Shown here one piece after another: positions 39,778 to 61,228 of a DNA stretch of 64,000 bases (positions within the stretch are counted from its first letter, which is position 1; each line of letters opens with the position of its first letter). The notes under the pieces are model-generated. The model saw only the letters and a list, made by a program, of their open reading frames with translations. It was not told the DNA's origin and searched no databases. Location of the stretch: assembly GCF_035999185.1 (NCBI RefSeq), contig NZ_DASYHB010000121.1, positions 10,154 to 74,153 of the forward strand, read 5' to 3'. The position numbers and the translations under genes are program-made. This DNA is from Ensifer sp. (lineage in GTDB: Bacteria > Pseudomonadota > Alphaproteobacteria > Rhizobiales > Rhizobiaceae).

Positions 39778-39934
39778 AACACATCCTTGGGTGTGTTTTT
39801 TGCAACCGTCAAGACCCACGCGCGGCTCGATCTCGCTTCAATTGTGCAAACCCACCCCTAGGCGATCAACGTGGTTGATTTCCGCCCTTAAAGGGGAAGG
39901 TTGGACGAACCGCCCGCGCCCTGGGCGCTGAAAA

Positions 39935-41167: not shown

Positions 41168-41175
41168 CGAAGTCG

Positions 41176-42243: not shown

Positions 42244-43007
42244 GCCCAGACTTTCCAGGGCGCAGCACCGCCCTGCCAGAGGTCTTCGAGCTGGTTCTTG
42301 TCGCGCAGCGTATCCATCGGACGCCAGAAACCGCCATGTTCAAAGGCCATCAACTGGCCTTCTGCCGCAAGGCCTTCCAAAGGCTCGGCCTCGAACGGCG
42401 TGTGGTCCCCTTCGATCCGGTCGAGGACCGAGCGGTTGAGGACGAAGAAGCCGCCATTGATGTGACCGTTGTCGCCGGCCGGCTTCTCGATGAAGCTTTG
42501 AACCCGCCCATCGTTGACAGCAAGCGCGCCGTAGCGGCCCGGCGGGATGACGCTTGTCACGGTTGCCTGACGGCCGTGATGACGGTGGAAATCGGTCAGC
42601 GCCTTGATGTCGATGTTTGCGACGCCGTCACCATAGGTAAGGCAGAACGTATCGCCCAGGTGATCGGCGACGCGTTTCAGACGTCCGCCGGTCATGGAAT
42701 CGGTTCCGGTATCGACGAGCGTGACGCGCCAGGGCTCGGCCTTGTTCGAGTGAAACAGGGTCTCGCCCGTTCTCATGCAATAGGTGACGTCGGAGGAGTG
42801 CAGCACGTAGTTGGCGAAGTACTCCTTGATCATGTAGCCACGGTAGCCGAGGCAGATCACGAAATCCGAAAACCCGTAGTGGCTGTAGATCTTCATGATG
42901 TGCCAAAGGATCGGCCGACCGCCGATCTCGATCATCGGTTTCGGCCTGAGATGGCTCTCTTCCGAGATGCGCGTGCCGTAGCCACCGGCAAGAATGACAA
43001 CCTTCAT
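42240..43007 (-). CDS. rfbF: Glucose-1-phosphate cytidylyltransferase
   Basis: LAGGYGTRISEES..PKPM, TGGRLKR, TYGDG, WRPMDTLRD. Confidence 0.93.
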   Translation of the reverse strand: MKVVILAGGYGTRISEESHLRPKPMIEIGGRPILWHIMKIYSHYGFSDFVICLGYRGYMIKEYFANYVLHSSDVTYCMRTGETLFHSNKAEPWRVTLVDTGTDSMTGGRLKRVADHLGDTFCLTYGDGVANIDIKALTDFHRHHGRQATVTSVIPPGRYGALAVNDGRVQSFIEKPAGDNGHINGGFFVLNRSVLDRIEGDHTPFEAEPLEGLAAEGQLMAFEHGGFWRPMDTLRDKNQLEDLWQGGAAPWKVWA

Positions 43008-43210
43008 GTAAGTGCCCTGTAGTTGCATGTGCCCCGAACACAACGGGTTGCCTCGCCGTATATCAGCGCGACCTTGTGTGTAGATGGCTCCGGCGCATTG
43101 ACAATCCCGCTTGTCGAACTATGAACCACGACACACAACTTTTTGGCGCGAAGCGCCAGGTTCATTGCACGATTTGCGATATTAATGCAATCGCTGAGTG
43201 AGACGGCGGA

Positions 43211-44062
43211 ATGGCGAGAGTAAGCATCGGTTTGCCGACCTATAACGGCGCGGAGTTCATCGGCGAGTGCCTTGCCTCCCTTCGGGATCAGAGCTTCGAG
43301 GATTTTGAAGTCTTCATTTCCGACAACGGCTCGACCGACGGCACCAGCGACATTTGTGCGGACTTCGCAAGGACGGACAAACGGTTCCGTCACGTGTTCT
43401 ATCCTGAAACCGTACCCGCGACGGAGAACTTCATAAGAGCGCGGGATATGACGAGCGCGCCCTATTTTTGCTGGCGCGCGGATGACGACCTGGCCGATCG
43501 CGAGCATCTCGCGGGCCTGGTGTCGGCGCTGGATGGAAACCCCCAAGCGGTGCTGGCGGTTTCTCCGGTGCTTCGGATTACGGAAAGCGCTGAGCGGCTG
43601 TTCGAGCTTCCGTCTTCAATCGCGAACGACCGCGTGGGGCGTATTCGTGATATCCTGATCGGGTGCCATCCCAGCTGGTTCTACGGTCTATGGAGGCGAG
43701 AGGCGACCGACAGCGCCCTGGGCGGTTTCGCGAACTACGAGTTTGCCTGGGCGGCCGATCATCTGGCGATGCTGCCGGCGATCCTCGACAATGCCGTTGC
43801 GCTGTCGCCCGAAGGGCGCTTCATTCAGCGCATCAAGCGGCAAGCGAACTACCATCTGCCGCCGGACAAGTTGCTGCAGGCGCGTAAGCAGTATCGGCAA
43901 CTTGCGCTTGAGATGATCGCTGAGCGCGAGTGGTCACCGGCCGAATTGAAGATCATAAGACGCGCGCTGGAACTCCACCTGGAACGCCGTGTTGCGCCGT
44001 GGTTCAAGACGCACAAGCGTGCGATAAAGCATAAACTGCGCTCGGCCTTGCCGTTCGGTTGA
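43211..44062 (+). CDS. GT2 family glycosyltransferase
   Basis: SIGLPTYN, DNGSTDGT, ADDD. Confidence 0.88.
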   Translation: MARVSIGLPTYNGAEFIGECLASLRDQSFEDFEVFISDNGSTDGTSDICADFARTDKRFRHVFYPETVPATENFIRARDMTSAPYFCWRADDDLADREHLAGLVSALDGNPQAVLAVSPVLRITESAERLFELPSSIANDRVGRIRDILIGCHPSWFYGLWRREATDSALGGFANYEFAWAADHLAMLPAILDNAVALSPEGRFIQRIKRQANYHLPPDKLLQARKQYRQLALEMIAEREWSPAELKIIRRALELHLERRVAPWFKTHKRAIKHKLRSALPFG

Positions 44063-44071
44063 AGACCGGCC

Positions 44072-45181
44072 TCAGGCCGCAGCGCAATCGCGCAGGACCT
44101 GAACCACGCGCGCGATCTCTTCGCCCGTCATGTCGTGATAGCTCGGCAGGTTGATCGCCCGGCCGGGCAAGTCGTAGGCCGTGGCGTTGGCCGGCACGTC
44201 ATCGAAGGGCGGCAGGGAGCTCAGCGGCCAGAAGAAGACGCGGGCGTCGATGTTTTCGACCGCAAAGGCTTCCTGCAACCTTTCCCGTGTTACGCCTGTC
44301 TCCTGCGCAAAGACGACGGTCGGCATCCAGAAACCGTTTTTCGTTCCTTCCGGCTCCGGGTTCATGGCCAGGGCGTTCACGCCGGAAAGCTGTTCCCGGT
44401 AGGCGTAGAAGATCTCGCGCTTGCGCTCCACCAGTTCATCGACGCGCTCGATCTGCGCCAGGCCGATGGCGGCCTGCAGGTTCGACATCTTGTACTTGAA
44501 GCCGATTTCGTCCGGCCAGAACTGCTTTTTCTGGCCGCGGGCGCGGCCATGGTTGGAAAGCGTCAGGACCTTGTCGTAAAGCTTGCTGTCGCTGGTGACG
44601 AACATGCCGCCTTCGCCAGTCGTCACGGTCTTGGTGCCGTGGAAGGAGAAGGCACCGAAGGCGCCAAGCGAACCGGCCTTACGTCCGCGCCATTCCGAGC
44701 CGAGCGCTTCGGCGGCATCCTCGACGACCGGAATGTTGTGCCGCGCGCCGATCTCGAGCAGACGATCCATGTCGCAGAGATTGCCGTAAATATGCACGGC
44801 CATGATGGCCTTCGTCTTCGGCGTAATCGCCGATTCAACTTTTTCCGGATCGATGCACCAGCTGTCTGCGAGGACGTCGACGAAAACAGGCTTCGCGCCG
44901 AGGTGAACGATCGGGGCAGCTGAAGCCGTCCAATTGGTGTCGGCGAGGATAACCTCGTCACCCGGTCCGACGCCGAGAGCGGCAAGCCCCATGTGCAATG
45001 CACCGGTGCAGCTCGACGTCGAGATCGCGTGCGTCGTGCCCAGATGTGCAGCAAAGGCAGCCTCGAACCGGTTGATATAGTCGTAGCAGCGCTCGCCCCA
45101 TCCGTTGGCCGCGGCGTCTGTGGCATAGGCGACTTCACGCTCTGTGATCGAGGGCTTGGTGTAGAGAATGCGGGGTTTCAT
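44072..45181 (-). CDS. DegT/DnrJ/EryC1/StrS sugar aminotransferase (perosamine synthase-like)
   Basis: SSCTGALH, VEDAAEALG, FSFHGTK (PLP Lys), GEGG, GFKYKM. Confidence 0.92.
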   Translation of the reverse strand: MKPRILYTKPSITEREVAYATDAAANGWGERCYDYINRFEAAFAAHLGTTHAISTSSCTGALHMGLAALGVGPGDEVILADTNWTASAAPIVHLGAKPVFVDVLADSWCIDPEKVESAITPKTKAIMAVHIYGNLCDMDRLLEIGARHNIPVVEDAAEALGSEWRGRKAGSLGAFGAFSFHGTKTVTTGEGGMFVTSDSKLYDKVLTLSNHGRARGQKKQFWPDEIGFKYKMSNLQAAIGLAQIERVDELVERKREIFYAYREQLSGVNALAMNPEPEGTKNGFWMPTVVFAQETGVTRERLQEAFAVENIDARVFFWPLSSLPPFDDVPANATAYDLPGRAINLPSYHDMTGEEIARVVQVLRDCAAA

Positions 45182-45295
45182 GGGGCGCCGTTCGATAGAG
45201 ACCTGGACGTTGCTGGAAAGCCGTGGATGCCGGAGCGGGAGAGACAAGGCATCTTGTTTCGTTCTCCCGCTGCCGCTTGTTCTGGTTCGCCCGCG

Positions 45296-46447
45296 TCAGA
45301 GCCAGACGTGGTCGAGGCCTGGTCGCTCGAGCCACGGTTGCGCGGCGATGGCGGCGCGGGCCTTCAAGGGGTTGAGGCCGATGAACAGCGCCTCGGCGTC
45401 CCCCGGCAGGTCCTCTGGCGACAGGACGGGAATGCCGAAGTGGGTTGCGCCCTTCATGTTTTCGTTGCGATCCAGGAACGCCACGACATCGACGGCCTGG
45501 CCGATGCGCCCGTAAATCCAGCTTCCGTAGAAGCCGGCGCCGTAGATCGCGACCTTGCGCTTGGCGTAGCGCTCAACCCCGTCTTTAAGTTTTACCGATG
45601 CCTGATCCCAGAAGGCGCAGATGTCACGCGCCTGTTTGGCCGCCTCAACGGCCGCAGCGGACGTGCCTGGAACGTCGAGCGCCGCCGCGGAGCTGCGCGC
45701 GACGACGAAAAAGGCGCCGGGAAACGAGGTGTTGTCGACGGTTTCCACCTCAAAGCCTGCGCTTGTGAGGGCATGGACAATCGACGCCTGGCTGAAATGG
45801 TTGAGGTGGTCGGCAACCGCCATGTCACCGGGATTGCCCGCAACGTCGGGCACGGAGAACAGGAAGGTGCCACCCGGGCGCAGCAGGTTGTGCACGTCGC
45901 GCATGAAGCCGACGGGATCGGCCACGTGCTCGACGACGAAATGGCACATGACCGCCTCAAACGTCTTCTGCCAGGTCTCGGGCACCGTATAGGTTGCCTG
46001 TGCCGCTTCCGGCACCCAGCCCTGCCAGGCGGCCGCATAGTCCGAACTGACATCGAAGACGTGGGGGTGAAGGTCGTCGCGCGCCGCAACCATCTTGCGC
46101 AACGTGTCCGCCTTGGCGGCACCATAGTCGAGGATCGAAGCGCTCTTGGGAAGGTCAAGCAGGCGGAGTGACAATGCGGCCTGGTGATCGGTGCGATAGA
46201 TGATCGTGCCATCTGCCGCGATCGCGAAGAACTGGTCGTGGTTCTCGCTGCTGAGAGAGATCCGATAGCCGGTGTCGTAGAAGGCCTCGATATCAGGAAT
46301 ATCGTCGCTTTGCGCATGTCCGCAGACGCCGCACACGTAGACGCGCGTCGGCACGTCGAGCAACGTGGTGCTCGACGTCAGGGCCGGCGCAGGCACTTCA
46401 TAGGATGGGGCGCCGATGTGGTCGCCACAAACTCGGCAGGCAGTCAT
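45296..46447 (-). CDS. Zn-finger class I SAM-dependent methyltransferase (C-methyltransferase-like architecture)
   Basis: CRVC...CGVC, ILDYGA, HFVVEHV, C-terminal IYGAG Rossmann-like domain. Confidence 0.78.
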   Translation of the reverse strand: MTACRVCGDHIGAPSYEVPAPALTSSTTLLDVPTRVYVCGVCGHAQSDDIPDIEAFYDTGYRISLSSENHDQFFAIAADGTIIYRTDHQAALSLRLLDLPKSASILDYGAAKADTLRKMVAARDDLHPHVFDVSSDYAAAWQGWVPEAAQATYTVPETWQKTFEAVMCHFVVEHVADPVGFMRDVHNLLRPGGTFLFSVPDVAGNPGDMAVADHLNHFSQASIVHALTSAGFEVETVDNTSFPGAFFVVARSSAAALDVPGTSAAAVEAAKQARDICAFWDQASVKLKDGVERYAKRKVAIYGAGFYGSWIYGRIGQAVDVVAFLDRNENMKGATHFGIPVLSPEDLPGDAEALFIGLNPLKARAAIAAQPWLERPGLDHVWL

Positions 46448-47301
46448 GCCGGCTCTCCTTGCGGAGCGACCAGCTCCGGCAGGACGTCGGCGAACTTCAC
46501 GCCGGCCGCGAACGAGCCCTTCCATCCGATGCGGATGCCCACCGGTTCGGCGAAGTTGAAGTAGCGGAACTGTATGCTCCAGCGCGGGATCTGCGAGACA
46601 TTGTGGCCCGACTGGTGCAGAGTCAGGAAGTCCATCAGAATGAGGTCGCCGGGCTTGCTGAGCGGCGCGACATGCTTGTAGCGCGCCAGCCGTTCCTCGC
46701 CCTTGTGGAGATGCAGCGCATAGGCACCCGTCTTTCCGGCGCCGGCGTCATCCTCATACACGGGCACGAGCCCCTCGGCATGCGAGCCCTCGGCGATCTG
46801 AACCGGCCCCATGTCTGCGCTGACTGGCAGCAACGGTGTCCAGAAGACAATGCCGTCGACGCTGCGCAATTGCGACGGGAATTCCTGATGCCACTGTGCG
46901 CGGAACTTTTCCTCGCCGGGATTGTCGATACGCATCCCGTAGCCGCCAGCGGCGATACCGGGAATGCTGCCAGGTCGCAGCGCCTTGAAGACCTCGTCGT
47001 TGGCAGCGGCGCTGACGAGGCGCATGAAGGCGGGGATCTGCTTCACCGCATCATAGACCTCGCCGCCCCAGGAACGGTTGACGGCAATGAGCCTGCGGTA
47101 GGCGATAGACATCGCTTCCTCAGCGGTCCCAGTCGGCGCGTCGACGCCGTACTTCTTGCAAAGCAGTTCGAGGATCTGGCGGACGCCCTCCTGGATGGGG
47201 GCGATCTCAGCCTGGATATCGTAGAAGCCCGGCACCAGATGATAGCCGTCGGTCTCGAACTGTTGGCGCGCGCTTTCGGAAATGATGGTGCTGTTCTTCA
47301 T
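46444..47301 (-). CDS. Phytanoyl-CoA dioxygenase (PhyH) family Fe(II)/2-oxoglutarate oxygenase
   Basis: FETDGY start, WHQE and LHQSG facial triad (HxE...H), GSH. Confidence 0.82.
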   Translation of the reverse strand: MKNSTIISESARQQFETDGYHLVPGFYDIQAEIAPIQEGVRQILELLCKKYGVDAPTGTAEEAMSIAYRRLIAVNRSWGGEVYDAVKQIPAFMRLVSAAANDEVFKALRPGSIPGIAAGGYGMRIDNPGEEKFRAQWHQEFPSQLRSVDGIVFWTPLLPVSADMGPVQIAEGSHAEGLVPVYEDDAGAGKTGAYALHLHKGEERLARYKHVAPLSKPGDLILMDFLTLHQSGHNVSQIPRWSIQFRYFNFAEPVGIRIGWKGSFAAGVKFADVLPELVAPQGEPA

Positions 47302-48023
47302 GATACGCGATCTTCCTCCTTCAGGAATTCCCGCCAAGACACGGTCGTCGGTGACAAATGCTTGCGCGCATCGGGACCGGTGCGCGCGATGAGGTCCAGT
47401 ACGGATACATAAGGCGTGAAGGTTTCGCGGGGCTGGGGCCACGGCGTGCAGCTATAGCTCATGTACTCGACGTGGACGCCGGCGGCTTCGAATGCGCCGT
47501 GATCGAGATAGTTGGCAGCGCCGTGCCCGGTCAGATAGCGCGTGCCTCCAGCCGAAAGCACCAAATTGAGCACGCGCTGCCACGACGTTCCGGTAATCGC
47601 CATTTCACTGGAGCGTTGCACGATGCGTTCAGCGCCGATGCCCATGTAGCGGGCAGAGACCTCGATGCTGGCGATCAGCAGATCGCAAACCGTCTCCTTG
47701 GCGTAGACCTCGTCGAAGACAGCCAGCGCATCGTCGATGAAGGGCGCTCCGCTCAGTGACTGGCGCAGCAGCGAGCGGTGGCTTGCGCGCCACTCTTCGC
47801 CGGTTCCCGATAGGTCACGGATTTTCTGAAAGCTTCCCTTGCCGGCAAGCGGGATCGTCATCCACGCCCGATCGTTGCCGTTCAGCAGTTGGATGCGATT
47901 GGTGAAGCTGCCTTTCGAAAACTGGGCATCGTCCAGATAGATGTATCCGTCGGCAACCATCAGTTGCTCAAAGAAGCCCGGCCAGGGAAAAAGCATCGGC
48001 TGTGAGATGACGACAGCTGTCAC
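47298..48023 (-). CDS. WbqC family protein
   Basis: QP..FPW.GFF, DDAQF, NRIQL, YLTGHGA..Y, S.LDL motifs. Confidence 0.85.
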   Translation of the reverse strand: MTAVVISQPMLFPWPGFFEQLMVADGYIYLDDAQFSKGSFTNRIQLLNGNDRAWMTIPLAGKGSFQKIRDLSGTGEEWRASHRSLLRQSLSGAPFIDDALAVFDEVYAKETVCDLLIASIEVSARYMGIGAERIVQRSSEMAITGTSWQRVLNLVLSAGGTRYLTGHGAANYLDHGAFEAAGVHVEYMSYSCTPWPQPRETFTPYVSVLDLIARTGPDARKHLSPTTVSWREFLKEEDRVS

Positions 48024-48580
48024 GAGCCCACCTCGCTCAACACATGCTCCAGCAGCGCGACATCATGTTGGTGCCCTTCGGCGTCGACGAAGTGTTTCTC
48101 CATCGTGCCGACAATGCGGTAGCCGAGCCCGAGATGAAGCTTCATGGAGGGGTGATTGTCCACCCTGATTTCCGCAAGGAGCTTGCGTAGCCCCAGCTGG
48201 ATACGGCTGAACGACATTAGTTGTCGCAGCGCCGATTGGCCAAGCCCACGCCCCCGGGCGTGGGCGGCAAGCACGATCCCGCCATATCCGGTTCCGTTCT
48301 TGCGGTGAACTTGACTGACCTGAACGTAACCGACGGCTCTTCGGGAAGCGCCATCTTCAATCACAAGGAAGGCCTCGCCTGGTTGGCTTTTCCGCCGATC
48401 CACCCATGCTTCCAGGTCGTCGTCGGTCGTTCCGTCTGGCACGGTTAGCAAGAGCGATTGCAGTTCTCGGTCGCGACGCAGCGCAAACAACAGTGGAAAA
48501 TCACCGGCATCGACGGAGCGCAGGTTTAGGTTGCCCTCCGCCGTGTGGGCAATTCCCGCATCCTCTATTTGCGTACGCAC
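48020..48580 (-). CDS. GNAT (RimJ/RimL-like) N-acyltransferase
   Basis: RGRGLG acyl-CoA motif, N..S..L...LGY..VG. Confidence 0.85.
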   Translation of the reverse strand: MRTQIEDAGIAHTAEGNLNLRSVDAGDFPLLFALRRDRELQSLLLTVPDGTTDDDLEAWVDRRKSQPGEAFLVIEDGASRRAVGYVQVSQVHRKNGTGYGGIVLAAHARGRGLGQSALRQLMSFSRIQLGLRKLLAEIRVDNHPSMKLHLGLGYRIVGTMEKHFVDAEGHQHDVALLEHVLSEVGS

Positions 48581-49317
48581 TTCAGGTAGCCCCCAGGCGA
48601 GCTCGATAGCACGAGTTTCCCGTTGAGGACGGGATCGGTCTCGAAGCGATCCGTTTCCTTGAGATAGGTGTTCAGCGCCGCATAGGGCTCGTCGCCCGGA
48701 TACCAGATTTTGGAGCGCTTTGTCGGCGTTTGCGAGGTGTCGCCCCAGCCAAGCAAGGTATCTGCGACAACGATGTACTGGCCTTCGGTTACCAGCGGGC
48801 CATAGGTCCGCAGCTCGTCCAGCACATGGTCGCGGCTGTGGTCGCTGTCGAGCACCACCATGACCGAGGCGCCTGGCGGGATTTCGGCCTTGACCTTCGC
48901 CAGCGTTTCTTCGGTCGTTGAAGGGCCCTCGATCAGCGTGATGCGCGAGGACATGGGGTGTTGCTCGATCGAGTCACGGTTGTGGGCGCGGATGTCGATG
49001 TCGACGCCGATGACCTTGCCCTTGCCGATCAGCTGCAGCATGGCCGCCATGAAGATCACCGAGCCGCCGCGGGCGACGCCTGTCTCGATGATGATGTCGG
49101 GCTTGGTGTTCCAGATGACTTCCTGGGTCGCCATGACATCGGCCGGCATCTGGATGATCGGCACGCCCATGAAGGACCACAGGTAGGAGTAGTCGTACTT
49201 GTCGAGCGTCACCAGGGTGTCGAGCGATTGCTGGAATGCGCCTTGATCCTGGCCCAGCGCAAGCGCCATTTCCGTCTTGTGGGCCTCGAATGCGAGACGA
49301 TCGTCTGCTACTGTCAT
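48565..49317 (-). CDS. CmcI / rhamnosyl O-methyltransferase family
   Basis: W.GVPIIQMP.D, KPDIIIETGVARGGS, VLDSDH. Confidence 0.88.
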   Translation of the reverse strand: MTVADDRLAFEAHKTEMALALGQDQGAFQQSLDTLVTLDKYDYSYLWSFMGVPIIQMPADVMATQEVIWNTKPDIIIETGVARGGSVIFMAAMLQLIGKGKVIGVDIDIRAHNRDSIEQHPMSSRITLIEGPSTTEETLAKVKAEIPPGASVMVVLDSDHSRDHVLDELRTYGPLVTEGQYIVVADTLLGWGDTSQTPTKRSKIWYPGDEPYAALNTYLKETDRFETDPVLNGKLVLSSSPGGYLKCVRK

Positions 49318-49502
49318 TGCTCCTGACACCCTTTTGAATGCACTCTATGGATGCGCCAACGGTGGCGAACCGTGAACTGTGGCGGTTTCGCCGATTCGCG
49401 ACGCTTTTCCTGTGAACGCTTTCATGTCGGCAATTGTAAATACGGTCAAGGCCGGTTTCTTAGGGGCGAAAGGGTCGTCCTTGGTTTCCGGCGGAAGGTT
49501 TC

Positions 49503-50048
49503 ATGTCGCGCTTCGATCGAATTTCTACACCCATAGCGGGTCTGATGGTTGTCGAGCGGCAGCGCAGGGGCGACGATCGCGGTTTCTTTTCGCGCTTCTT
49601 CTGCCGCGACGCGCTTGCCGACTTCGGCGGAGGTGGGACGATCGCCCAGATCAACCATACGCTGACGCAGGCGGCCGGCACGATCCGCGGGCTGCACTTT
49701 CAGCGCGCGCCGCATGACGAGGCGAAATTCGTCTCTTGTCTTTCCGGCGCCGTCTTCGACGTCGCGGTCGACCTCAGACCAGGTTCTCCGACCTATCTGC
49801 ATTGGCACGGCGAAGTGCTGAGTGCGGAAAACGGACGCTCGATGATGATCCCTGGCGGCTTTGCCCATGGATTTCAGACGCTCGCAGACGATTGCGAACT
49901 GATCTATCTGCACGACAAGCCCTATGCACCCGAGGCTGAGGGCGGGCTTAATCCGCTCGATCCGCGACTGGCAATCGCCTGGCCGTTGCCGGTCGGGCAG
50001 ATGTCGGCGCGCGACCAGGCCCTGCCTGTGCTGCCGATCGCGAGCTGA
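49503..50048 (+). CDS. rfbC: NDP-4-keto-6-deoxyhexose 3,5-epimerase (RmlC/RfbC family)
   Basis: DDRGFF, IRGLHFQ, VAVDLR, FAHGFQTL, MSARD. Confidence 0.9.
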   Translation: MSRFDRISTPIAGLMVVERQRRGDDRGFFSRFFCRDALADFGGGGTIAQINHTLTQAAGTIRGLHFQRAPHDEAKFVSCLSGAVFDVAVDLRPGSPTYLHWHGEVLSAENGRSMMIPGGFAHGFQTLADDCELIYLHDKPYAPEAEGGLNPLDPRLAIAWPLPVGQMSARDQALPVLPIAS

Positions 50049-53131: not shown

Positions 53132-53208
53132 TGGCGCACCCGACAGGATTCGAACCTGTGACCTTTGGAATCGGAATCCAACACTCTATCCAGCTGAGCT
53201 ACGGGTGC
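53132..53208 (-). tRNA. tRNA-Arg(CCG)
   Basis: Reverse complement folds: GCACCCG/CGGGTGC acceptor, D-arm, TTGGA-TTCCGAT-TCCAA anticodon arm, GTTCGAATC T-loop, encoded CCA; 77 nt. Confidence 0.97.
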
Positions 53209-53532
53209 ATCCGTTGGCGGCAGGGCCGCCGAAGCAGGCTGTGAGCGGTTCTTAGCCTAGCTTGCGTGCGGCTTCAATGGCCAATCGCAAGAGATTGTGG
53301 TAGAAACAATGATCCTTCGCTGCGCTGTTGTCGTGGCGCATCGTTTCGGGCAAACGATGCGTCGGCTGAAGCGCATTATTGTGAAGCGGCATAACCCGCT
53401 TGGTGTAGCTAGAATTGGTCATGCGATCGTCCTTGCGACGACGGATGTCGCATTATAGATTTCATATTATAGAAAATACTAATTTAGATTGCCCGATGCT
53501 CCATTAACGTTTTTTAGCGAGGGGGCAGGTTT

Positions 53533-55077
53533 TTGGCCATTCGAAACCTCACGACCGGAGAACCGGCGTTGGAGAGGCTGCGCTCCGATCCCGCGTTGAT
53601 GTTACTTCTCGCCTTGTCGGCAGTGCTCTTCGTGCTGAACACCTGGAACGGCATCGGCATCCTTCCGGATTCGACCCGCTATATGCAGATCGTCAGCACG
53701 CCCTACGACGCGCCGCTTTACGCGTGGCTTTTGGGCGCCGGCGGATCCCTTGGGCTCGAACTCGAGCATGTCGCGCTGGGCGCTGCATTCCTGCTCTATC
53801 TTCTGAACACCTATCTCGTCTTCTCGCTGTTCAAGACGGCGTTGCCGGACCAGCCGTTCTATGTGACCGTTGGGACGCTGCTGATCATCGTCCATCCGAC
53901 CTTCCTCTGGACGAGCACCATCGCGATGTCCGAGGCGCTGTTCCTGGCGCTGACGTTTCTCGCCGTCCGTTTTTTCATGCGCTACATGCGGGAGCAGGGG
54001 CGGGGGGCTTTGCTAGCGTCGTCGGCCTGCATCGGTCTTGCCATGCTCGCCCGTTTCGTGGCGCCACCAATCGGCGCGGCTTTTGCAACCATTGCGCTGT
54101 TTTACAATTCGGCGCGCTCCCTGCGCCAGAAGCTGGTTGACGTCGTCATCCTTTTTATCGGCAGCGCCGGTATCTTCCTCGCCTGGGTGATCGTCAGCAA
54201 GCTCCTTGTCGGCCGGGCTGTTGGCCGCGCGGTCTGGTTTTATGGCAACGCTGACGCGGAGCGCTGGCTCGCCGGCCTGTCCCTGCTTGCGAGCTTCCTG
54301 TTACCAAGTCAGGTGCCGCAGATCATCCGCATTCCGGTGCTGCTTCTGGCGCTTGTCATTGCAACGGCGGTCCTGGTTTTAACCCTCAAGCGGAACTGGC
54401 CCGAACGCAAGCCCGACGATCGCGATCTGATCGTGCTCATCTTCGGTCTGTTTGGATATTTCTACCTGCTGTTCGTCGTGCTCGCGGTGCATGTGGAGGC
54501 GAACCTGCAGCTCAACTCGCGCTACTCGCTGCCCTTCTATGTCGGGATCATGTTCGTCCTGGTGATTGCAGCGGCAGACTACTGCGGCCGGCGCGCTTCC
54601 GCCCCGGTCGCCCGTCGATCGATCGCCATTATTCTGCTTTGCCTTCTCTCCATCCACACGCTGCGCAGTGCCGCGCAAACCACCGAGGCCTTCCGGGACG
54701 GCGTCGGCTTTCAAAGTACTGCATGGAAATCGTCGCCGATCGTCGGCGCCGTGCGGGCGCTGCCGGCGGACGCGGTCATTTTCACCAATGCCTGCGACCC
54801 GCTGAATTTTCTTACGCGCCGCTGGACGGATTGGATCCCCTCCTACAGCGAGAGGCGGACCGGCCTTGAAAGCGACGCCGGCCCGCTGGATGCGCAGCTC
54901 GTGCGCCTGCGCGAGGATCTGGTGAAAAAGAAGGCCTATGTCGTCTTCGTCGATGCGATCGACTGGCGGTTTTATCTGGTGACGGAGAAGGAGCTGGTCA
55001 AGCTCGCCAAGCTGAAGCTTGTGCGCTCGGAGAGGGACGGCCGCATCTACCAGGCGGAAGATGCCATCGCGCCATAG
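53533..55077 (+). CDS. Polytopic GT-C-type glycosyltransferase (ArnT/PMT-like)
   Basis: Roughly 11-13 hydrophobic segments, PDSTRY in first outer loop, MSEALF, RY..P before a soluble C-terminal domain; TTG start. Confidence 0.65.
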
Positions 55078-55123
55078 GGGGCGCCGGGACAGGAGCATGT
55101 GATCTTAATCCAAGGAGAAGGAC

Positions 55124-56134
55124 ATGCCTGCAAACCAGGAAAACACGACAAGCATCGAAACGGTCGGCGTTCTGCCGCAGCCGCAGGGACAGATGGCCGA
55201 TTACCTGTCCCTTGCCCGCTTCGATCACGTCACAAAGCATGTCTTCATCCTGCCAGGGCTCATCCTTGCCTGTGCGCTCACCGCGCCGGATTTCGCCTCC
55301 CTCGCCATCAACATCCCCGTTGGGCTCCTGAGCGCGGTGTGCATCGCGTCGGCCAACTATGTCATCAACGAGTGGCTGGATCGGGAAAGAGATGCGGCGC
55401 ATCCGACCAAGTCGAAGCGCCGCGCCGTGGTCGTCGAGATGCAGCCCCGCATCGTCTACGGCGAATACCTGCTTCTCGCCATTGCCGGATTGCTGCTTGC
55501 GGCGGTCATCGGCAAGCTGTTCTTCGCGACCTCGGTGCTCTTTCTGCTTTCGGGCATTGTCTACAATGTCGAGCCGATCCGGGCGAAGGACAAACCCTAT
55601 CTCGATGTGCTGACGGAGTGCCTCAACAACCCCATCCGGTTCCTTCTCGGCTGGGCAATCGTCGACCAGGTGACCCTGCCGCCGATCAGCGTGCTCGCCG
55701 CCTACTGGATGGCCGGCGCCTTTCTGATGGCCGCCAAGCGGCTTGGCGAATACCGCGACATTGCTTCCCATGCGGGCGTTGCCGTGCTGAAGAAGTATCG
55801 ACGGTCGTTTGAATACTACACGGAGGAGAGCCTCACGGTTTCCTGCTTCGTCTATGCGATGATGACGGCGTTCCTCTTGGGGGTCTTCCTGGTCAAGTAC
55901 CGGGTGGAATACATCCTCGTCTTTCCGTTCATCAGCGGGCTCTTTGCCGTCTATCTCTGGCTTGCCACCCGCCCGGGCTCGGTGGTGCAACGGCCTGAAC
56001 GGTTGTTTCACTCGCGCCGGCTGGACGTGATGCTGGCCTTGACCGTCATCGTCTTCCTGTTCGCAAGCTTCGTCGACGTGCCGATACTTGACTTCATGGC
56101 CGCCTCGTTCCTCGTGCCGGTATCGTCGCTGTAA
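55124..56134 (+). CDS. UbiA-family polyprenyl-phosphate phosphoribosyltransferase (Rv3806c/NoeC-like)
   Basis: YVINEWLDRERDAAHPTKSKRR, YLDVL, NNPIR, KRLGEYR...YRRSFEYYT. Confidence 0.82.
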   Translation: MPANQENTTSIETVGVLPQPQGQMADYLSLARFDHVTKHVFILPGLILACALTAPDFASLAINIPVGLLSAVCIASANYVINEWLDRERDAAHPTKSKRRAVVVEMQPRIVYGEYLLLAIAGLLLAAVIGKLFFATSVLFLLSGIVYNVEPIRAKDKPYLDVLTECLNNPIRFLLGWAIVDQVTLPPISVLAAYWMAGAFLMAAKRLGEYRDIASHAGVAVLKKYRRSFEYYTEESLTVSCFVYAMMTAFLLGVFLVKYRVEYILVFPFISGLFAVYLWLATRPGSVVQRPERLFHSRRLDVMLALTVIVFLFASFVDVPILDFMAASFLVPVSSL

Positions 56135-56889
56135 TGGTGGGCTCCAGACTGCCGAATGGCGCTGTTGACTGGGATCAATTGCGCCTTGTCGTCTTCGATC
56201 TGGACGGCACGCTCTACGACCAGCGGCGGTTGCGCAGCGTCATGCTGCTGAGGCTTCTTGCCGATGCGGTACGCACGCGCAGTCTCGACAAGCTTCGCAT
56301 CTTGAGGGCCTTTCGGGACTGCCGCGAGGAGCTTGGCGAAGCGATGGCAACGGACATCGCCACACGGCAATTCGCGCTTGCGGCCGAGCGTTGCGGACGC
56401 CCGGTCGCAACCGTGAAGGCAACGGTCGAGGAATGGATCGAGCGCCGGCCTCTCGATATTCTGCGCTCCTGCCGCTGTCGCGGGGTCGAGCGAGTGTTCG
56501 CGGGCCTTGCGGCTGAGGGAAAAACGCTCGCGGTCCTTTCGGATTACCCGGCTGCAAGGAAGCTGAAGGCCCTCGGCCTCGACGCGGACATTGTCGTCTG
56601 CGGGACTGACCCCGAGGTCGGCGTTCTGAAACCGCATCCGGCCGGCCTTGCCCACGTGCTCAACCGTGCGCAGGCAACTCCCGAAACGGCGATCATGATC
56701 GGCGACCGGGTCGACCGTGACGGGGCTGTTGCCAAGGGCCTCGGCATGCGGGCGCTGATCCGCAGTGCCCGGCCGATTGCGGGTGTCGATACATTCCGCG
56801 GCTATGACGACGAAATCTTTCGTCCCCTGACCGAGCGGCTCGGGGTGGCCGCCGCGGCGTCGCCGTCCTCCGTCACGACATCATCTTGA
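56134..56889 (+). CDS. HAD-family phosphatase
   Basis: FDLDGTLYD, LSD, KPHP, IGDR; TAATG coupling to the UbiA gene. Confidence 0.85.
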   Translation: MVGSRLPNGAVDWDQLRLVVFDLDGTLYDQRRLRSVMLLRLLADAVRTRSLDKLRILRAFRDCREELGEAMATDIATRQFALAAERCGRPVATVKATVEEWIERRPLDILRSCRCRGVERVFAGLAAEGKTLAVLSDYPAARKLKALGLDADIVVCGTDPEVGVLKPHPAGLAHVLNRAQATPETAIMIGDRVDRDGAVAKGLGMRALIRSARPIAGVDTFRGYDDEIFRPLTERLGVAAAASPSSVTTSS

Positions 56890-57901
56890 GCAGCCAGAGC
56901 GCGCCCTGCTTGATCGGGGTGCGGTGCGGGCTCTTTGCGGTGACGGCGGCTGCGATCTTGGAACTCTTCAGGTACCAGTCGTAGCTCTCCTGCAGCATGG
57001 CTTCGTTGGAGTATTTCGGGCGCCACCCCATGGCAAGCAGCGGCTCGACGTCGAAGTAGCACTCCTTGTGGTAGGTCAGGTAGTGCCAGGGCACCAGGGG
57101 CGAGACCCGGAGCCAGTGCAGCGTGCGAAGCGTGTTGATGGTGAGGCCCGTCGGCAGGCTTCTCACCTTCGAGGTGCTGCCCGCATAGCGCACCAGGGCC
57201 TCCAGATCGTGGCGCAACGTGCCGAAGCGATCCGTGCCGACGTTGTAGGTGCCGCTCCTGCCGGCGTTCAGCGCCAGCATGTAGAAGTCCATGAGGTCAT
57301 GGGCGTGGACGAACTGGAACTTGATGTTGCCGGATCCGATGACATAGACCGCGCGGTTCTCGGTGATCCATTCGAACAGGATCTGGAAGATGCCGAGCCG
57401 GCCGCTGCCGAGCGTCGCGCGCGGGCGGATGGTGATCAGCGTCATGTCGGCCGCCTGGCAGATTGCCTCGGCCAGTTCTTCGCCGGCGCGCTTGGATTTG
57501 CCGTAGGGCTCGACCGGGCGAAGGGGCGTGGCTGCCGTGATCGGGCCGGAGGGCGGGATGCCATAGGCGGCGGTCGAGCTGACATGGATCAGCGACCTGA
57601 CGCCGGCCCTGGCCGCTTCCTCGCAGACGATGCGCGTTCCCTCGACGTTGACGTTCCAGTAGTCGCGGCCGGCATCCGTCTGCGCCACGAGGGCTGCATT
57701 GTGGTGCACGACGTCGACATCGCGCATGGCGGCCCGCACGCCGTCGCGATCGAGAACGGAGCAGTTGACGAACTCGATGTCCTTTGGACGGGTCTGATCT
57801 TCCCAGACGTCGAGGACCCGCACCTGGTCGCCCTGTTCGCGCAGCCGCCTGGCGGCAAGGTTGCCGATGAAGCCTGATCCGCCGGTGATGAGATGCCGCA
57901 T
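56873..57901 (-). CDS. NAD-dependent epimerase/dehydratase (extended SDR)
   Basis: TGGSGFIG, HNAA, SSTAAYG, YGKSK. Confidence 0.88.
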   Translation of the reverse strand: MRHLITGGSGFIGNLAARRLREQGDQVRVLDVWEDQTRPKDIEFVNCSVLDRDGVRAAMRDVDVVHHNAALVAQTDAGRDYWNVNVEGTRIVCEEAARAGVRSLIHVSSTAAYGIPPSGPITAATPLRPVEPYGKSKRAGEELAEAICQAADMTLITIRPRATLGSGRLGIFQILFEWITENRAVYVIGSGNIKFQFVHAHDLMDFYMLALNAGRSGTYNVGTDRFGTLRHDLEALVRYAGSTSKVRSLPTGLTINTLRTLHWLRVSPLVPWHYLTYHKECYFDVEPLLAMGWRPKYSNEAMLQESYDWYLKSSKIAAAVTAKSPHRTPIKQGALWLLKMMS

Positions 57902-57935
57902 ATGTCCCTCCAGGCCCTCTAAGGGGAGTGTCTGA

Positions 57936-59408
57936 TCAGATCGCTCGATCCTCGAGCGCGCGGGTGACGTTGCGATGGGCGACCGCCATGACGGTGCCCT
58001 GTGGGTTGACGACCGTCGGGCCGCACAGAAGCGAAGCGTCGGCGATGTAGAGATTGGTGGCGCCGTGCACGCGCCCGAACGAATTGGCCGCACACTTCTC
58101 GGCGTTCTCGCCCATCGGACAGGAAGAGAAGAGGTGAAGCGCGGTGGCATTCGCCTGCTTGGGTGGCAGCGTTTCGGGAAGCCTGGCGATGTCTGCCAGC
58201 GACCGCAGCACCGGGTAGCCAGGGATGCTCGGATAGACGGCAAGCGCGCCGGCGGCAAAGAGAACCTCGGCGAGGCGCGCAAGGCCGTCTGCCAGTTCCT
58301 TCAGGTCCGCAGGCTGAAGGCCGACGCGCACCAGCGGGTCGCGAAAGCCGGGCAGGGAGCGTACCTTGCCGGATCCGCCGGTGCTCTGCACGTAGTAGAT
58401 CGCCATGCGCCGCCAATCCTGGTCGACCGTGTCGATCATGTCAGGGTGCGCAGCCATGGCGAGCGCCAGTGCCGGCCGCTTGCTCATCGAGCAGCCCATG
58501 CTGAAACGCGGGTCGAATTCCTTGATCTGGTGCACCGGCTCAAGTTCGCCGGGGGTGTTGAGTTCGTCCGGGAAGACCGCCACCACCTTCAGCATCGGAT
58601 GGAAGCGCAGGCTGTCGCCCACGTGGCGGGTGATGCCCGAGCGTCGCAGCAGCCAAGGGGTTTGCACCGCGCCGCCGGCGATAAAGACGGTTTTCGCCTT
58701 CAGTTCGATCTGGCGCGGTCCGCCCGCGCCGTTGCTGCGCGCCTGGACCAGCCATTGCCCGTTCGACTGGGTGAGTTTGGTGGCGCAGGTCTCGGGCATC
58801 AACATGCCGCCGGCCTGCAGGAAGCGCGGCACGAAGGTTTCCGACATGGATTGCTTGCGGCCGGGCGCGCCGCCCGCCGCACCTGCCGCGTAGGCATAAA
58901 GGCGCGGCACTTCGAGAGATGACCAGCCGAGCCGCCGTGCTCCCTCATCGAGCCGCACCGAAAGTTGCGGCGCCGGGCCCGGCAGGTACTCGACCCTTGC
59001 CACCGCCTCGCAGGCGTCAAAATGCGGGACGAGCTCTTCAAGGCTCAGCGCGTCCACCCGATAGTCCTTGGCCCAGCGGTCAAGAACCGACGATGAGGTG
59101 CGGTGATAGAGGCCCCGGTTGATCTCGCTTCCGCCGCCGACGCAACGCCCTTCGACATAGGCGATCTTGGTGGCGCCGAAGCCGATGTTGACGCCGGCGT
59201 TGCGGTACTTCTGCAAGATTTCTTCGCGGGAGAAATGCGGGGCCGAGTCCAGGGACAGATGCGGGCCTTCCTCGAGCATCAGCACGGATTTTCCGGCTTC
59301 CGCGCATCGGGTGGCGGTCACCGCCCCGCCCGGGCCGGATCCAATGACGATGACGTCGGGGACGAGCCTCTCAGGGGCCGGCCGGCGCTCCGATTGCGAC
59401 AGGTTCAT
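57936..59408 (-). CDS. GMC-family FAD oxidoreductase
   Basis: VIGSGPGG, GRCVGGGSEIN, LHLFSSCPMG, DAS, NPQGT. Confidence 0.88.
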   Translation of the reverse strand: MNLSQSERRPAPERLVPDVIVIGSGPGGAVTATRCAEAGKSVLMLEEGPHLSLDSAPHFSREEILQKYRNAGVNIGFGATKIAYVEGRCVGGGSEINRGLYHRTSSSVLDRWAKDYRVDALSLEELVPHFDACEAVARVEYLPGPAPQLSVRLDEGARRLGWSSLEVPRLYAYAAGAAGGAPGRKQSMSETFVPRFLQAGGMLMPETCATKLTQSNGQWLVQARSNGAGGPRQIELKAKTVFIAGGAVQTPWLLRRSGITRHVGDSLRFHPMLKVVAVFPDELNTPGELEPVHQIKEFDPRFSMGCSMSKRPALALAMAAHPDMIDTVDQDWRRMAIYYVQSTGGSGKVRSLPGFRDPLVRVGLQPADLKELADGLARLAEVLFAAGALAVYPSIPGYPVLRSLADIARLPETLPPKQANATALHLFSSCPMGENAEKCAANSFGRVHGATNLYIADASLLCGPTVVNPQGTVMAVAHRNVTRALEDRAI

Positions 59409-59769
59409 GCTGATAGTCCTGGCCGTAAAGGTCTGAGTAAATACCGAATAATGCCAATGAAACATGGAACTCGACAAAGCGCCGCTTGAACTCCAGGCGG
59501 GACCGCCGCCATTTGTCGAGTTCGCTCAGCCGATTTTCGAGCGGAAGCTGATGAAAAAATTTGCCTCTGCTGAGCAGGGGCCAGGCATTGAAAAGAAGCA
59601 CGAGAATATGGAAGGGCGGACGCAGATAGTCCGGCATCTGCCGGTGGACACGAAGCAGAAATTCCGCGGCGCGCACGCCCAAGGCGCCCCGCTTGTCATC
59701 GACAGAGCCGCGTTCATGGGCAATCGTCTCGCCGAGCGCCAGGATGGCCTGTTGAAAATGCTGCGACAT
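59371..59769 (-). CDS. Small protein resembling gluconate 2-dehydrogenase subunit 3 / GMC partner
   Basis: F..L..E.R...L..W..S...KR helical pattern; overlaps the GMC start. Confidence 0.55.
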   Translation of the reverse strand: MSQHFQQAILALGETIAHERGSVDDKRGALGVRAAEFLLRVHRQMPDYLRPPFHILVLLFNAWPLLSRGKFFHQLPLENRLSELDKWRRSRLEFKRRFVEFHVSLALFGIYSDLYGQDYQHEPVAIGAPAGP

Positions 59770-59948
59770 GACCGAGCCCGTTATCAAACCGGCCCCATCT
59801 GCGGAGCCTGAGACTGTTCTGATGAATACGGCTGCCTGCTCTTTACTGTTAGTATTTCTATCTGCTCTTATAAGCAAAAGCTACTAAAACATTGGTTCCG
59901 GCTGGTCGCCGGTCGTGATCCTCGACTGCCAAATGCTGAGGCAACCGG

Positions 59949-60374
59949 ATGAGACGCCTTCTGGATACGAGCTTTTTCCGCTACTTCGTCTTCGGCTGCA
60001 TTGCGGCGAGCCTGCAGGTGGCGACGCTCGCCTTGCTTGTGGAGATCGTGCGCCTGGCCCCCGTCTATGCGTCTACCGTCGCCTTCTATTTCGCTGTCGT
60101 CGTCAACTATTTCCTGCAGCGACGCTTCACCTTTCGGTCCGACGAGCCGCACCTTCAGGCCCTGCCGAAGTTCCTGGCCGTGTCGACCCTTGGCGCGGGA
60201 ATAAACGCGGTCGCCTTCAGCCTGCTCACCACCGTCATGCACTACGTGTTCGCTCAGGCGCTGGCGCTGCTCCTCGTCTTCTCGGTGAATTATGCGCTCA
60301 GCCGGCTGCTGATCTTCCGCACGCGGCGTGACGATGAAGCGCCTGACACGGGACAGGCTCAAGCGGGCAAATAA
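59949..60374 (+). CDS. GtrA-family flippase-like membrane protein
   Basis: FFRYFVFG, NYFLQRRFTFR, NYALSRLLIFR; four TMs in about 140 aa. Confidence 0.88.
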   Translation: MRRLLDTSFFRYFVFGCIAASLQVATLALLVEIVRLAPVYASTVAFYFAVVVNYFLQRRFTFRSDEPHLQALPKFLAVSTLGAGINAVAFSLLTTVMHYVFAQALALLLVFSVNYALSRLLIFRTRRDDEAPDTGQAQAGK

Positions 60375-60401
60375 AAATGCCGCATCGCGAGGATGCGGCA
60401 T
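60372..60401 (-). terminator. Terminator between convergent gtrA-like gene and xylG
   Basis: ATGCCGCATC/GATGCGGCAT stem with an A-run on the left (U-run on the minus strand). Confidence 0.65.
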
Positions 60402-60442
60402 CGTTGTGATGGTCGGGTTTCCCGACGAAACCGAGCCTCGTC

Positions 60443-61228
<786 letters not shown>

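Follow-up and report, generated by a model that had tools for sequence, protein, structure and literature searches.

Candidate sugar-tailoring genes for a lipid-linked pentofuranose in an accessory cassette of Ensifer sp.: a two-piece GMC flavoprotein and an extended SDR

To our knowledge, the lipid-linked ribose donor is diversified by only two described routes, DprE1/DprE2, which gives arabinose, and a single short-chain dehydrogenase/reductase (SDR), which gives xylose. DprE1 has a VAO/PCMH fold, DprE2 is a classical SDR of ~250 residues and the mycobacterial phosphatase is a PAP2 protein. Here we describe a seven-gene cassette from Ensifer sp., located in a 64,000-nucleotide stretch (hereafter the window; contig NZ_DASYHB010000121.1, positions 10,154 to 74,153, forward strand), in which the redox genes encode a flavin adenine dinucleotide (FAD) oxidoreductase of the GMC family, an overlapping small partner and an extended SDR. 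The best explanation of these three genes is that they form the sugar-tailoring half of an accessory cassette for periplasmic glycosylation with a ribose-derived pentofuranose. The pathway type has been known since 2024; the tailoring set of GMC protein, small partner and SDR is widespread and is not described in the literature that we searched, where neither the y4n gene names of pNGR234a nor GMC combined with UbiA, DprE1 or polyprenyl led to any account of this module.

In the three-component systems, a UbiA-type polyprenyl phosphoribose synthase (PPPRS) and a HAD phosphatase produce undecaprenyl-phosphate-linked ribofuranose (Und-P-Ribf), a small flippase exports it and a GT-C enzyme adds the sugar to a periplasmic glycan (Kelly et al. 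2024, PMC11127046). Auxiliary epimerases extend these systems, a single SDR (ORF13) yielding xylofuranose and DprE1/E2 homologues yielding arabinofuranose (PMC11127046). In Citrobacter youngae O1/O2 the components are ORF15 (PPPRS-PRP), the MATE flippase ORF14, the GT-C enzyme ORF12 of family GT136 and the SDR epimerase ORF13 (PMC11127046). The window cassette shares with this system a UbiA phosphoribosyltransferase, a HAD phosphatase, a small flippase, a GT-C enzyme and an auxiliary SDR, but its UbiA and HAD proteins are encoded by separate genes rather than joined, and its flippase candidate is a GtrA rather than a MATE protein. It also contains the two-piece GMC flavoprotein, whereas the text and supplementary information of Kelly et al. 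2024 hold zero mentions of GMC, oxidoreductase or FAD; the latter lists pRCCGE531b, a plasmid that carries a paralogous two-SDR GMC cluster (PMC11127046).

With the mycobacterial decaprenylphosphoryl arabinose (DPA) pathway (Rv3806c, Rv3807c, DprE1, DprE2, Rv3789 and the Emb/Aft GT-C enzymes) the cassette shares a UbiA protein predicted to depend on phosphoribosyl pyrophosphate (PRPP), a dephosphorylation step, the logic of an FAD oxidase and an NAD(P)H reductase, GtrA and GT-C enzymes. It differs in having a GMC fold with a small subunit instead of VAO/PCMH, an extended SDR of 342 residues instead of a classical one of ~250 and a HAD instead of a PAP2 phosphatase; moreover, the cassette is accessory rather than essential, and arabinose is not established as its product.

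The limits of the three focal genes were refined from homologue lengths (the GMC homologues have 490 residues). Translations and Pfam searches place all three, with the motifs quoted for them, where the initial annotation had reported them:
56873-57901, minus strand: extended SDR of NAD type (342 aa), hereafter SDRw; starts MRHLITGGSGFIGN; Pfam Epimerase (PF01370), E 4.3e-34; YGKSK motif
57936-59408, minus strand: GMC-family FAD oxidoreductase (490 aa); starts MNLSQ; PF00732 and PF05199
59371-59769, minus strand: small helical GMC partner (132 aa), upstream of the GMC gene; no Pfam or NCBIfam family

The 3' end (stop) of the small-partner gene overlaps the GMC start by 38 nt, and the SDR gene converges on the HAD phosphatase gene with a 17-nt overlap. 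The Pfam scan of the GMC protein returned GMC_oxred_N (PF00732) with E 6.8e-26 and 91.9 bits against a cutoff of 23, and GMC_oxred_C (PF05199) with E 4.1e-16 and 60.2 bits against a cutoff of 24.6. Its translation contains GGGSEIN, LHLFSSC and NPQGT; in an alignment of 15 homologues the GxGxxG glycines G25, G27 and G30 are invariant, as are H427 (LHLFSSC) and N470 (NPQGT), which align with the C-terminus of cellobiose dehydrogenase. With FAD-binding fold domains and the C-terminal His plus His/Asn pair both in place, the protein is, judged by its sequence, a member of the GMC family. The DprE1 family test of this protein gave no match to PF01565 (FAD_binding_4) or NF053785, and the DprE2 family NF053786 was not among the matches of the window SDR at E <= 0.01; neither of these two NCBIfam models matched either protein. 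SDRw retains GGSGFIGN (GxxGxxG), SST (the S-S/T-T element) and YGKSK (YxxxK) in every architecture of the homologue alignment, together with an Asp at the end of β-2 (VLDV) that we read as a preference for NAD. Homologues are numerous, with 2,659 GMC proteins at E <= 1e-10 among the candidates scored and 1,089 representatives of 50%-identity clusters for the small partner at E <= 1e-3; the best 120 GMC homologues are 58-91% identical to the window protein, and the top 120 SDR homologues (64-93% identical) lie on the same contigs as the GMC matches.

The structure model of the GMC protein has a mean predicted local distance difference test score (pLDDT) of 71.5. Its nearest folds are cholesterol oxidase, the nearest, as well as fructose dehydrogenase, the alpha subunit of FAD-glucose dehydrogenase and pyranose 2-oxidase, at ~16% identity; these relatives oxidise C1, C2, C3 or C5 of a sugar or the 3-OH of a sterol. 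The small partner is modelled as a bundle of five helices with a mean pLDDT of 90, for which Foldseek found no PDB fold match at E <= 0.001. A clear kinship to the gamma subunits of FAD dehydrogenases was considered and is unsupported by the fold search of this confident model; PF13618 (Gluconate_2-dh3) is weakly matched by 4 of 29 family members (best E 2.4e-4) and is not matched by the window protein. Neither the GMC protein nor the small partner has a signal peptide, and the latter has no twin-arginine translocation (TAT) signal, Sec signal or RR motif. The membrane GMC dehydrogenases (the gamma-alpha FAD-glucose dehydrogenase of B. cepacia, fructose dehydrogenase of Gluconobacter and gluconate 2-dehydrogenase), which are among the nearest folds, likewise combine a GMC subunit with a small co-encoded partner. 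The window pair differs from them in that its small partner lacks a TAT signal and a match to the gamma-subunit fold and no cytochrome subunit accompanies it; it is predicted to be cytoplasmic rather than periplasmic and to act on a lipid-linked rather than a free sugar.

To place these genes in context we assembled loci from three sources, with 80 taken from one-genome-per-species contigs, two from plasmids and one from Sphingomonas, and assigned their neighbours with seed profiles; counts below refer to the 81 fetched loci of a tblastn survey or to the 84 loci of a hidden Markov model (HMM) table. By tblastn, 74 of the 81 loci have a small-partner homologue directly upstream of the GMC gene. 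In the HMM table it is missing from only three of the 84, namely a contig that begins within the GMC gene and two loci of symbiotic plasmids in which a 125-aa hypothetical gene takes its place. In 21 of the 81 loci the small partner is fused in frame to the GMC N-terminus. Since adjacency is nearly universal and 21 loci carry a fusion, the two are best taken as the parts of one enzyme. An SDR gene is nearby in 65 of the 81, and the association of small partner, GMC and SDR is far beyond chance. A UbiA gene stands beside small partner and GMC in most of the 84 loci, across at least eight phyla, and the loci lacking it are mostly on short or truncated contigs. The module spans Proteobacteria, Cyanobacteria, Verrucomicrobia, Planctomycetes, Acidobacteria, Bacteroidota and Bacilli.

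We propose the following scheme, for which we infer the substrate, the carbonyl intermediate, the order of the steps, the oxidised position, the electron acceptor and the acceptor glycan. After the HAD phosphatase has stripped the 5'-phosphate, the GMC protein with its small helical subunit would turn one hydroxyl of polyprenyl-P-ribofuranose into a carbonyl at the cytoplasmic face of the membrane, and the extended SDR would reduce this carbonyl from the opposite face with NAD(P)H, giving an epimeric pentofuranose (xylo or arabino); relatives would aminate the carbonyl instead. GtrA would then flip the donor and the GT-C enzyme would transfer the sugar to an envelope acceptor. That the GMC pair oxidises a ring hydroxyl of polyprenyl-P-ribofuranose and that SDRw reduces the resulting ketone to the epimer is a proposition that we hold to be evenly balanced. 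Within it, C3' chemistry (xylofuranose) is weakly and only slightly favoured over C2' (arabinofuranose), a tilt that comes from the Bacillus architecture described below, in which DprE1 and DprE2 homologues accompany the GMC gene.

The remaining genes of the cassette supply the other steps of such a pathway:
53533..55077, plus strand: GT-C fold membrane glycosyltransferase (514 aa); Pfam PMT_2, E 1.5e-7, above gathering score
55124..56134, plus strand: predicted UbiA-superfamily polyprenyl-phosphate phosphoribosyltransferase (336 aa); Pfam UbiA, E 1e-18
56134..56889, plus strand: HAD-family phosphatase (251 aa), predicted 5'-phosphoribose phosphatase; Hydrolase, E 3.2e-16, and HAD_2, E 7.8e-13
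59949..60374, plus strand: GtrA-family membrane protein (141 aa), flippase candidate; GtrA_DPMS_TM (PF04138), E 2.6e-22

By family assignment, the three-component gene set (UbiA, HAD, GtrA and a PMT_2-type GT-C) appears complete within the 7.2-kb cassette. The PRPP-Mg and decaprenyl-phosphate binding residues of Rv3806c shown structurally are Arg22, Lys28, Asn73, Asp77, Lys87, Arg90, Tyr138 and Lys143, among which Asn73 and Asp77 serve Mg/PRPP, Arg22, Lys87, Arg90 and Lys143 form the K/R cluster and Lys28 contacts the polyprenyl phosphate (PMC10994848). We aligned the window UbiA with UbiA proteins of related loci, one of which passes the decaprenyl-phosphate phosphoribosyltransferase family NF008977 (256.8 bits against a cutoff of 234). 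The invariant equivalents in the window protein are R32, K38, N82, D86, K96, R99, Y147 and K155, and their spacing matches that of Rv3806c. Since binding residues and spacing are conserved, the window protein is a divergent but credible polyprenyl-phosphate phosphoribosyltransferase. The HAD protein contains the motifs DLDGT and GDRVDRD, and in relatives it adjoins or is fused to UbiA. The GT-C gene is conserved beside UbiA and HAD in alphaproteobacterial loci, and its product is predicted to be a periplasmic transferase that uses the lipid-linked donor. Searches of solved-structure sequences with UbiA and with the GT-C protein gave no usable match. Rv3789, from the mycobacterial DPA pathway, is also a GtrA-family protein (PMC7389260); the GtrA gene of the cassette, which diverges from that of the small partner, recurs in the SDR-only alphaproteobacterial loci.

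Around the small partner and GMC the loci fall into a few architectures:
Type A (window, rhizobia, Sphingomonas): GT-C, UbiA, HAD, small partner, GMC, one SDR (SDRw), GtrA
Type A, aminotransferase subclade (alphaproteobacteria, mainly sphingomonad): adds a class-III aminotransferase and an MprF-like LPG_synthase_TM; SDRw in 10 loci, absent in 6
Type B (cyanobacteria, Verrucomicrobia, Planctomycetes, Acidobacteria, Bacteroidota, rhizobial symbiotic plasmids): SDRw and a further extended SDR, frequently with DUF218 and SMR
Type C (three Bacillaceae: L075:3774-21391 from Peribacillus frigoritolerans, L061 and L077): small partner, GMC, UbiA, DprE1-like, DprE2-like SDR, LPG_synthase_TM, DUF212, GT-C

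The six- or seven-gene cassette of Type A also occurs in Sphingomonas, Mesorhizobium (in M. loti and other Mesorhizobium records), Rhizobium and Pararhizobium. Type A is a clade of its own in the GMC tree (100/100 support) and splits into an SDR-only subclade, which includes the window protein, and the aminotransferase subclade. One strand of the paralogous two-SDR cluster of rhizobial symbiotic plasmids (L089, pNGR234a 295290-314774; L090, pRCCGE531b) encodes an SDR, SMR, a small protein and GMC; the opposite strand encodes a 658-aa membrane protein, the second SDR and HAD-UbiA. The cluster is a few kb away from nodS in NGR234, pMLa of M. japonicum MAFF303099 also has homologues, and the GMC protein of pRCCGE531b is 38% identical to that of the window. 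As a separate observation, DUF218 is conserved between the two SDR genes in cyanobacterial loci (e.g. L026:12590-13150) and some Bacteroidota two-SDR loci without HAD, and might be the missing phosphatase or another tailoring step.

The aminotransferase operons bear most directly on the product of the GMC pair. Their order is class-III aminotransferase, GT-C, UbiA, HAD, small partner, GMC and, in some, SDR, mostly with LPG_synthase_TM on the other strand. Six of them lack the SDR (L012:4670-12893, L009:6218-12519, L010, L014, L017 and L019), a point against the reading in the initial annotation; in these six, GMC is the only adjacent oxidoreductase beside the aminotransferase, from which it follows that the GMC product would be a carbonyl that can be aminated. 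The flavin dehydrogenase GenQ and the class-III aminotransferase GenB1 are a documented oxidise-then-transaminate pair (PMC4039129). By analogy with GenQ/Neo11 and GenB1/Neo18, which act in C6' amination of aminoglycosides (PMC4039129), the carbonyl made by a flavin dehydrogenase would be aminated in the sphingomonad variants, although the aminoglycoside enzymes lack a small subunit and their substrates are soluble pseudo-oligosaccharides, and the window cassette has an SDR in the aminotransferase's place. MprF-like LPG_synthase_TM is present in 13 of the 16 aminotransferase loci and otherwise only in the Bacillus loci and on one truncated contig, which suggests that these operons make a lipid-linked amino-pentofuranose donor with a dedicated flippase. 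A broader view, in which the GMC pair is a general carbonyl-installing enzyme for polyprenyl-phospho-pentofuranoses across many phyla, with SDRs leading to epimers and aminotransferases to amino-pentofuranoses flipped by LPG_synthase_TM proteins, is one that we advance tentatively and at somewhat less than even odds.

Several observations weigh against oxidation by GMC followed by reduction by SDRw. In ten loci (within L015-L027, and L041), nine of them in one sphingomonad operon, GMC is accompanied by both the aminotransferase and the SDR; a simple scheme in which the two draw on one carbonyl cannot apply to them, and the idea that SDR and aminotransferase are mutually exclusive alternatives was rejected. 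Two verrucomicrobial loci with long flanks (L051 and L069) have HAD-UbiA and a fused small-GMC protein with no adjacent SDR or aminotransferase. The Type C loci, which sit inside a Wzx/Wzy polysaccharide locus, have no extended SDR; in the GMC tree the Bacillus proteins are nested in the cyanobacterial Type B clade (98/97), which suggests transfer between phyla, and the Bacillus lineage has swapped two SDRs for DprE1/DprE2 while retaining small partner and GMC. The best NCBIfam match of the window UbiA, NF008977, reaches 69 bits against the cutoff of 234, and at the position of Gln135, the ribose O3 contact of Rv3806c, this UbiA subfamily has Gly, the sole checked residue that differs. Nor does the fold search fix the oxidised position: assigning regiochemistry from relatives only ~16% identical and of varied positions was rejected. 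Finally, ORF13 of C. youngae epimerises C3 as one SDR alone, so an SDR might not need an oxidase (PMC11127046).

The last point is the precedent for a reading in which the two activities are independent: the SDR would be a self-contained NAD+-dependent epimerase like ORF13, and the GMC pair would oxidise the exocyclic C5' hydroxyl to an aldehyde or uronic acid. We consider this reading rather unlikely, and with it the donor that it predicts, a pentofuranuronic acid (riburonic, xyluronic), or 5-amino-5-deoxy-pentofuranose in the aminotransferase relatives. It accommodates every architecture without a dedicated reductase, whether GMC stands alone, with aminotransferase (6 loci), with aminotransferase and SDR (10 loci) or with DprE1/DprE2, and for these it is more economical than the oxidation-reduction scheme. 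Class-III aminotransferases of sugar pathways typically use exocyclic aldehydes made by a flavin dehydrogenase (GenQ/GenB1, Neo11/Neo18; PMC4039129), and the best NCBIfam matches of the aminotransferases in our loci, PigE, putrescine aminotransferase and acetylornithine aminotransferase, are aldehyde-handling enzymes. However, GenQ also yields a ketone, so that the aminotransferase class leaves the position unfixed (PMC4039129), a similar aminotransferase also partners a DprE1-like oxidase elsewhere in the Ensifer genome (see below), and the nearest structural neighbours of the GMC protein mostly oxidise secondary alcohols. Terminal D-riburonic acid, with its biosynthesis unexplained, occurs in the exopolysaccharides of S. 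meliloti IFO13336 and M. loti R7A (PMC8227245), and the reading is compatible with it, but no link between the cassette and these strains was found and the sugar is a lead only.

A search that started from the SDR speaks more directly to its dependence on GMC. SDRw homologues occur in 4 of 400 other alphaproteobacterial genomes, and in all four a GMC gene lies ~0.3-1.3 kb away, as in the window genome; the converse fails, as GMC occurs without SDRw. A free epimerase should sometimes stand alone, but SDR homologues were never seen without an adjacent GMC gene. This asymmetry, in which the SDR needs GMC, fits an SDR that works on the GMC product.

If the SDR does reduce a GMC-made ketone, the pair could be a non-orthologous DprE1/DprE2, with GMC as 2'-oxidase and SDR as 2'-keto-reductase leading to polyprenyl-P-arabinofuranose; this we judge distinctly unlikely. 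The logic matches the DPA pathway and an Rv3789-like GtrA is present. No DprE1/DprE2 gene adjoins this UbiA subfamily in ~25 loci, and only 3 of the 84 loci carry dprE1/dprE2 at all, so homologous loci do not routinely hold them. Those three are the Bacillus loci. There the DprE1 homologue reaches 450 bits on NF053785 against a cutoff of 500, the UbiA passes the DPPR synthase cutoff, and a DegT aminotransferase, a formyltransferase and a PIG-L deacetylase are also encoded. Because small partner and GMC adjoin DprE1- and DprE2-like genes in these loci, where a second 2'-oxidase would be redundant, GMC is not simply interchangeable with a 2'-oxidase. Nothing ties the product to arabinose.

The Ensifer genome itself has a second UbiA locus, on another contig (C89; L088:6386-12169, minus strand), with the following genes:
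C89 locus, minus strand: HAD-UbiA fusion (486 aa; NF006088, 581 bits), DprE1-like FAD oxidase (440 aa), extended SDR (433 aa), class-III aminotransferase (488 aa)

On NF053785 the DprE1-like protein reaches 329 bits, and it shares 41% identity with its Bacillus counterpart; the SDR has an extra N-terminal region of ~100 residues and is 32% identical to SDRw, and the aminotransferase is 36% identical to that of the Novosphingobium GMC locus. As a DprE1-like gene of this type is present in 23 of 23 genomes of the genus, the C89 locus looks like a core, uncharacterised pathway, possibly to an amino-pentose. The same partner families thus surround a different flavoprotein, in gene sets otherwise parallel to those of GMC, which is what a non-orthologous swap would look like. 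The same distribution counts against a GMC 2'-oxidase that stands in for DprE1: the initial annotation set the GMC-SDR pair where DprE1/DprE2 would be expected, which was overstated, given that a DprE1-like gene occurs elsewhere in this genome and in all 23 congeners searched whereas the GMC cassette is found in 6 of 23. Mutual exclusivity between GMC-SDR and dprE1/dprE2, which it put forward as a check, fails at the level of genomes. What endures of the proposed non-orthologous oxidise-then-reduce pair is the pairing itself, which is favoured by a UbiA with Rv3806c-type residues except Gln135, by the presence of HAD, GtrA and GT-C, by the constant GMC neighbour of the SDR and by the C89 swap pattern; an arabinose product and a simple DprE replacement are not.

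The flippase type tracks the tailoring set, GtrA occurring with the SDR only, SMR with two SDRs and LPG_synthase_TM with the aminotransferase. Since the flippase follows the tailoring enzymes and the GMC pair has no export signals, tailoring would take place on the lipid-linked donor at the cytoplasmic face, before flipping. This correlation, the co-location with UbiA over at least eight phyla and the aminotransferase variants all point to a sugar donor, and they make it very improbable that GMC and SDR act off the lipid-linked sugar, whether on the polyprenol carrier, on another lipid (sterol- or hopanoid-like) or on the glycan after transfer. Such a role is hinted at by weak matches of SDRw to HpnA, 3-beta-HSD and the sterol demethylase partner SdmB and by cholesterol oxidase as the nearest fold of the GMC protein, but the SDR matches are far under their family cutoffs, and both proteins lack export signals whereas a glycan would be modified in the periplasm.

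Pentofuranose decorations contribute to the diversity of O-antigens and envelopes, to recognition by phage and host and to the options for glycoengineering. The GMC module, if our oxidation-reduction scheme is true, would be a third route from the ribose donor, possibly to amino- or oxidised pentofuranoses not yet seen in glycans. If GMC is a branch point more generally, there would be an undescribed family of keto, amino and epimeric lipid-linked pentose donors and of surface modifications, made through a second flavoenzyme solution independent of DprE1. As DprE1 is a drug target, an unrelated enzyme with similar chemistry is of comparative mechanistic interest. Its small size (7.2 kb), its self-contained make-up and its variation among strains of a culturable rhizobial genus make the cassette convenient for reconstitution.

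The boundaries of the cassette were established by comparison with congeners that lack it:
53132..53208, minus strand: tRNA-Arg (CCG), found by ARAGORN; left landmark of the inserted cassette
53281..60451: accessory insertion of 7.2 kb with seven genes

The tRNA-Arg flank aligns with cassette-free congeners up to window position 53280 and the xylG side from 60452; the distance from the tRNA-Arg flank to xylG is ~133 bp in congeners G001 and G013 and 7,171 bp here. Compared with these two congeners, a clean insertion of 7.2 kb separates tRNA-Arg(CCG) from xylG. We found no flanking direct repeats or integrase at the insertion boundaries and no sigma-70-like promoters for the cassette. The insertion, together with the presence of the GMC gene in only six of the 23 genus genomes, makes the cassette a strain-variable accessory unit. 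In congener G012 the match to the GMC gene (contig C1:2624331-2625787) is broken into overlapping segments, residues 3-225 and 209-490, that are read in different frames; this apparent frameshift suggests decay of the cassette in that lineage.

Several minor features accompany the insertion. An AT-rich leader (53440-53530) precedes the TTG start of the GT-C gene. At 60376-60402 on the minus strand there is a strong terminator-like hairpin with an 11-bp stem and then a T-rich tail; it lies just 3' of xylG, abuts the 3' end of the GtrA gene and marks the right edge of the insertion. The window has a G+C content of ~62%, so that many spurious open reading frames appear, and a 177-aa frame at 59868-60401 (minus strand), which matches no family and is antisense to the GtrA gene, was treated as one of these. 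A CDP-hexose/O-antigen-like cluster lies at 39040-50048, ~3.5 kb upstream of the cassette, and encodes a glucose-1-P cytidylyltransferase, a CDP-glucose 4,6-dehydratase, methyltransferases, a DegT aminotransferase and WbqC-like, GNAT and RmlC-like proteins; its glycan is a candidate acceptor for the GT-C enzyme.

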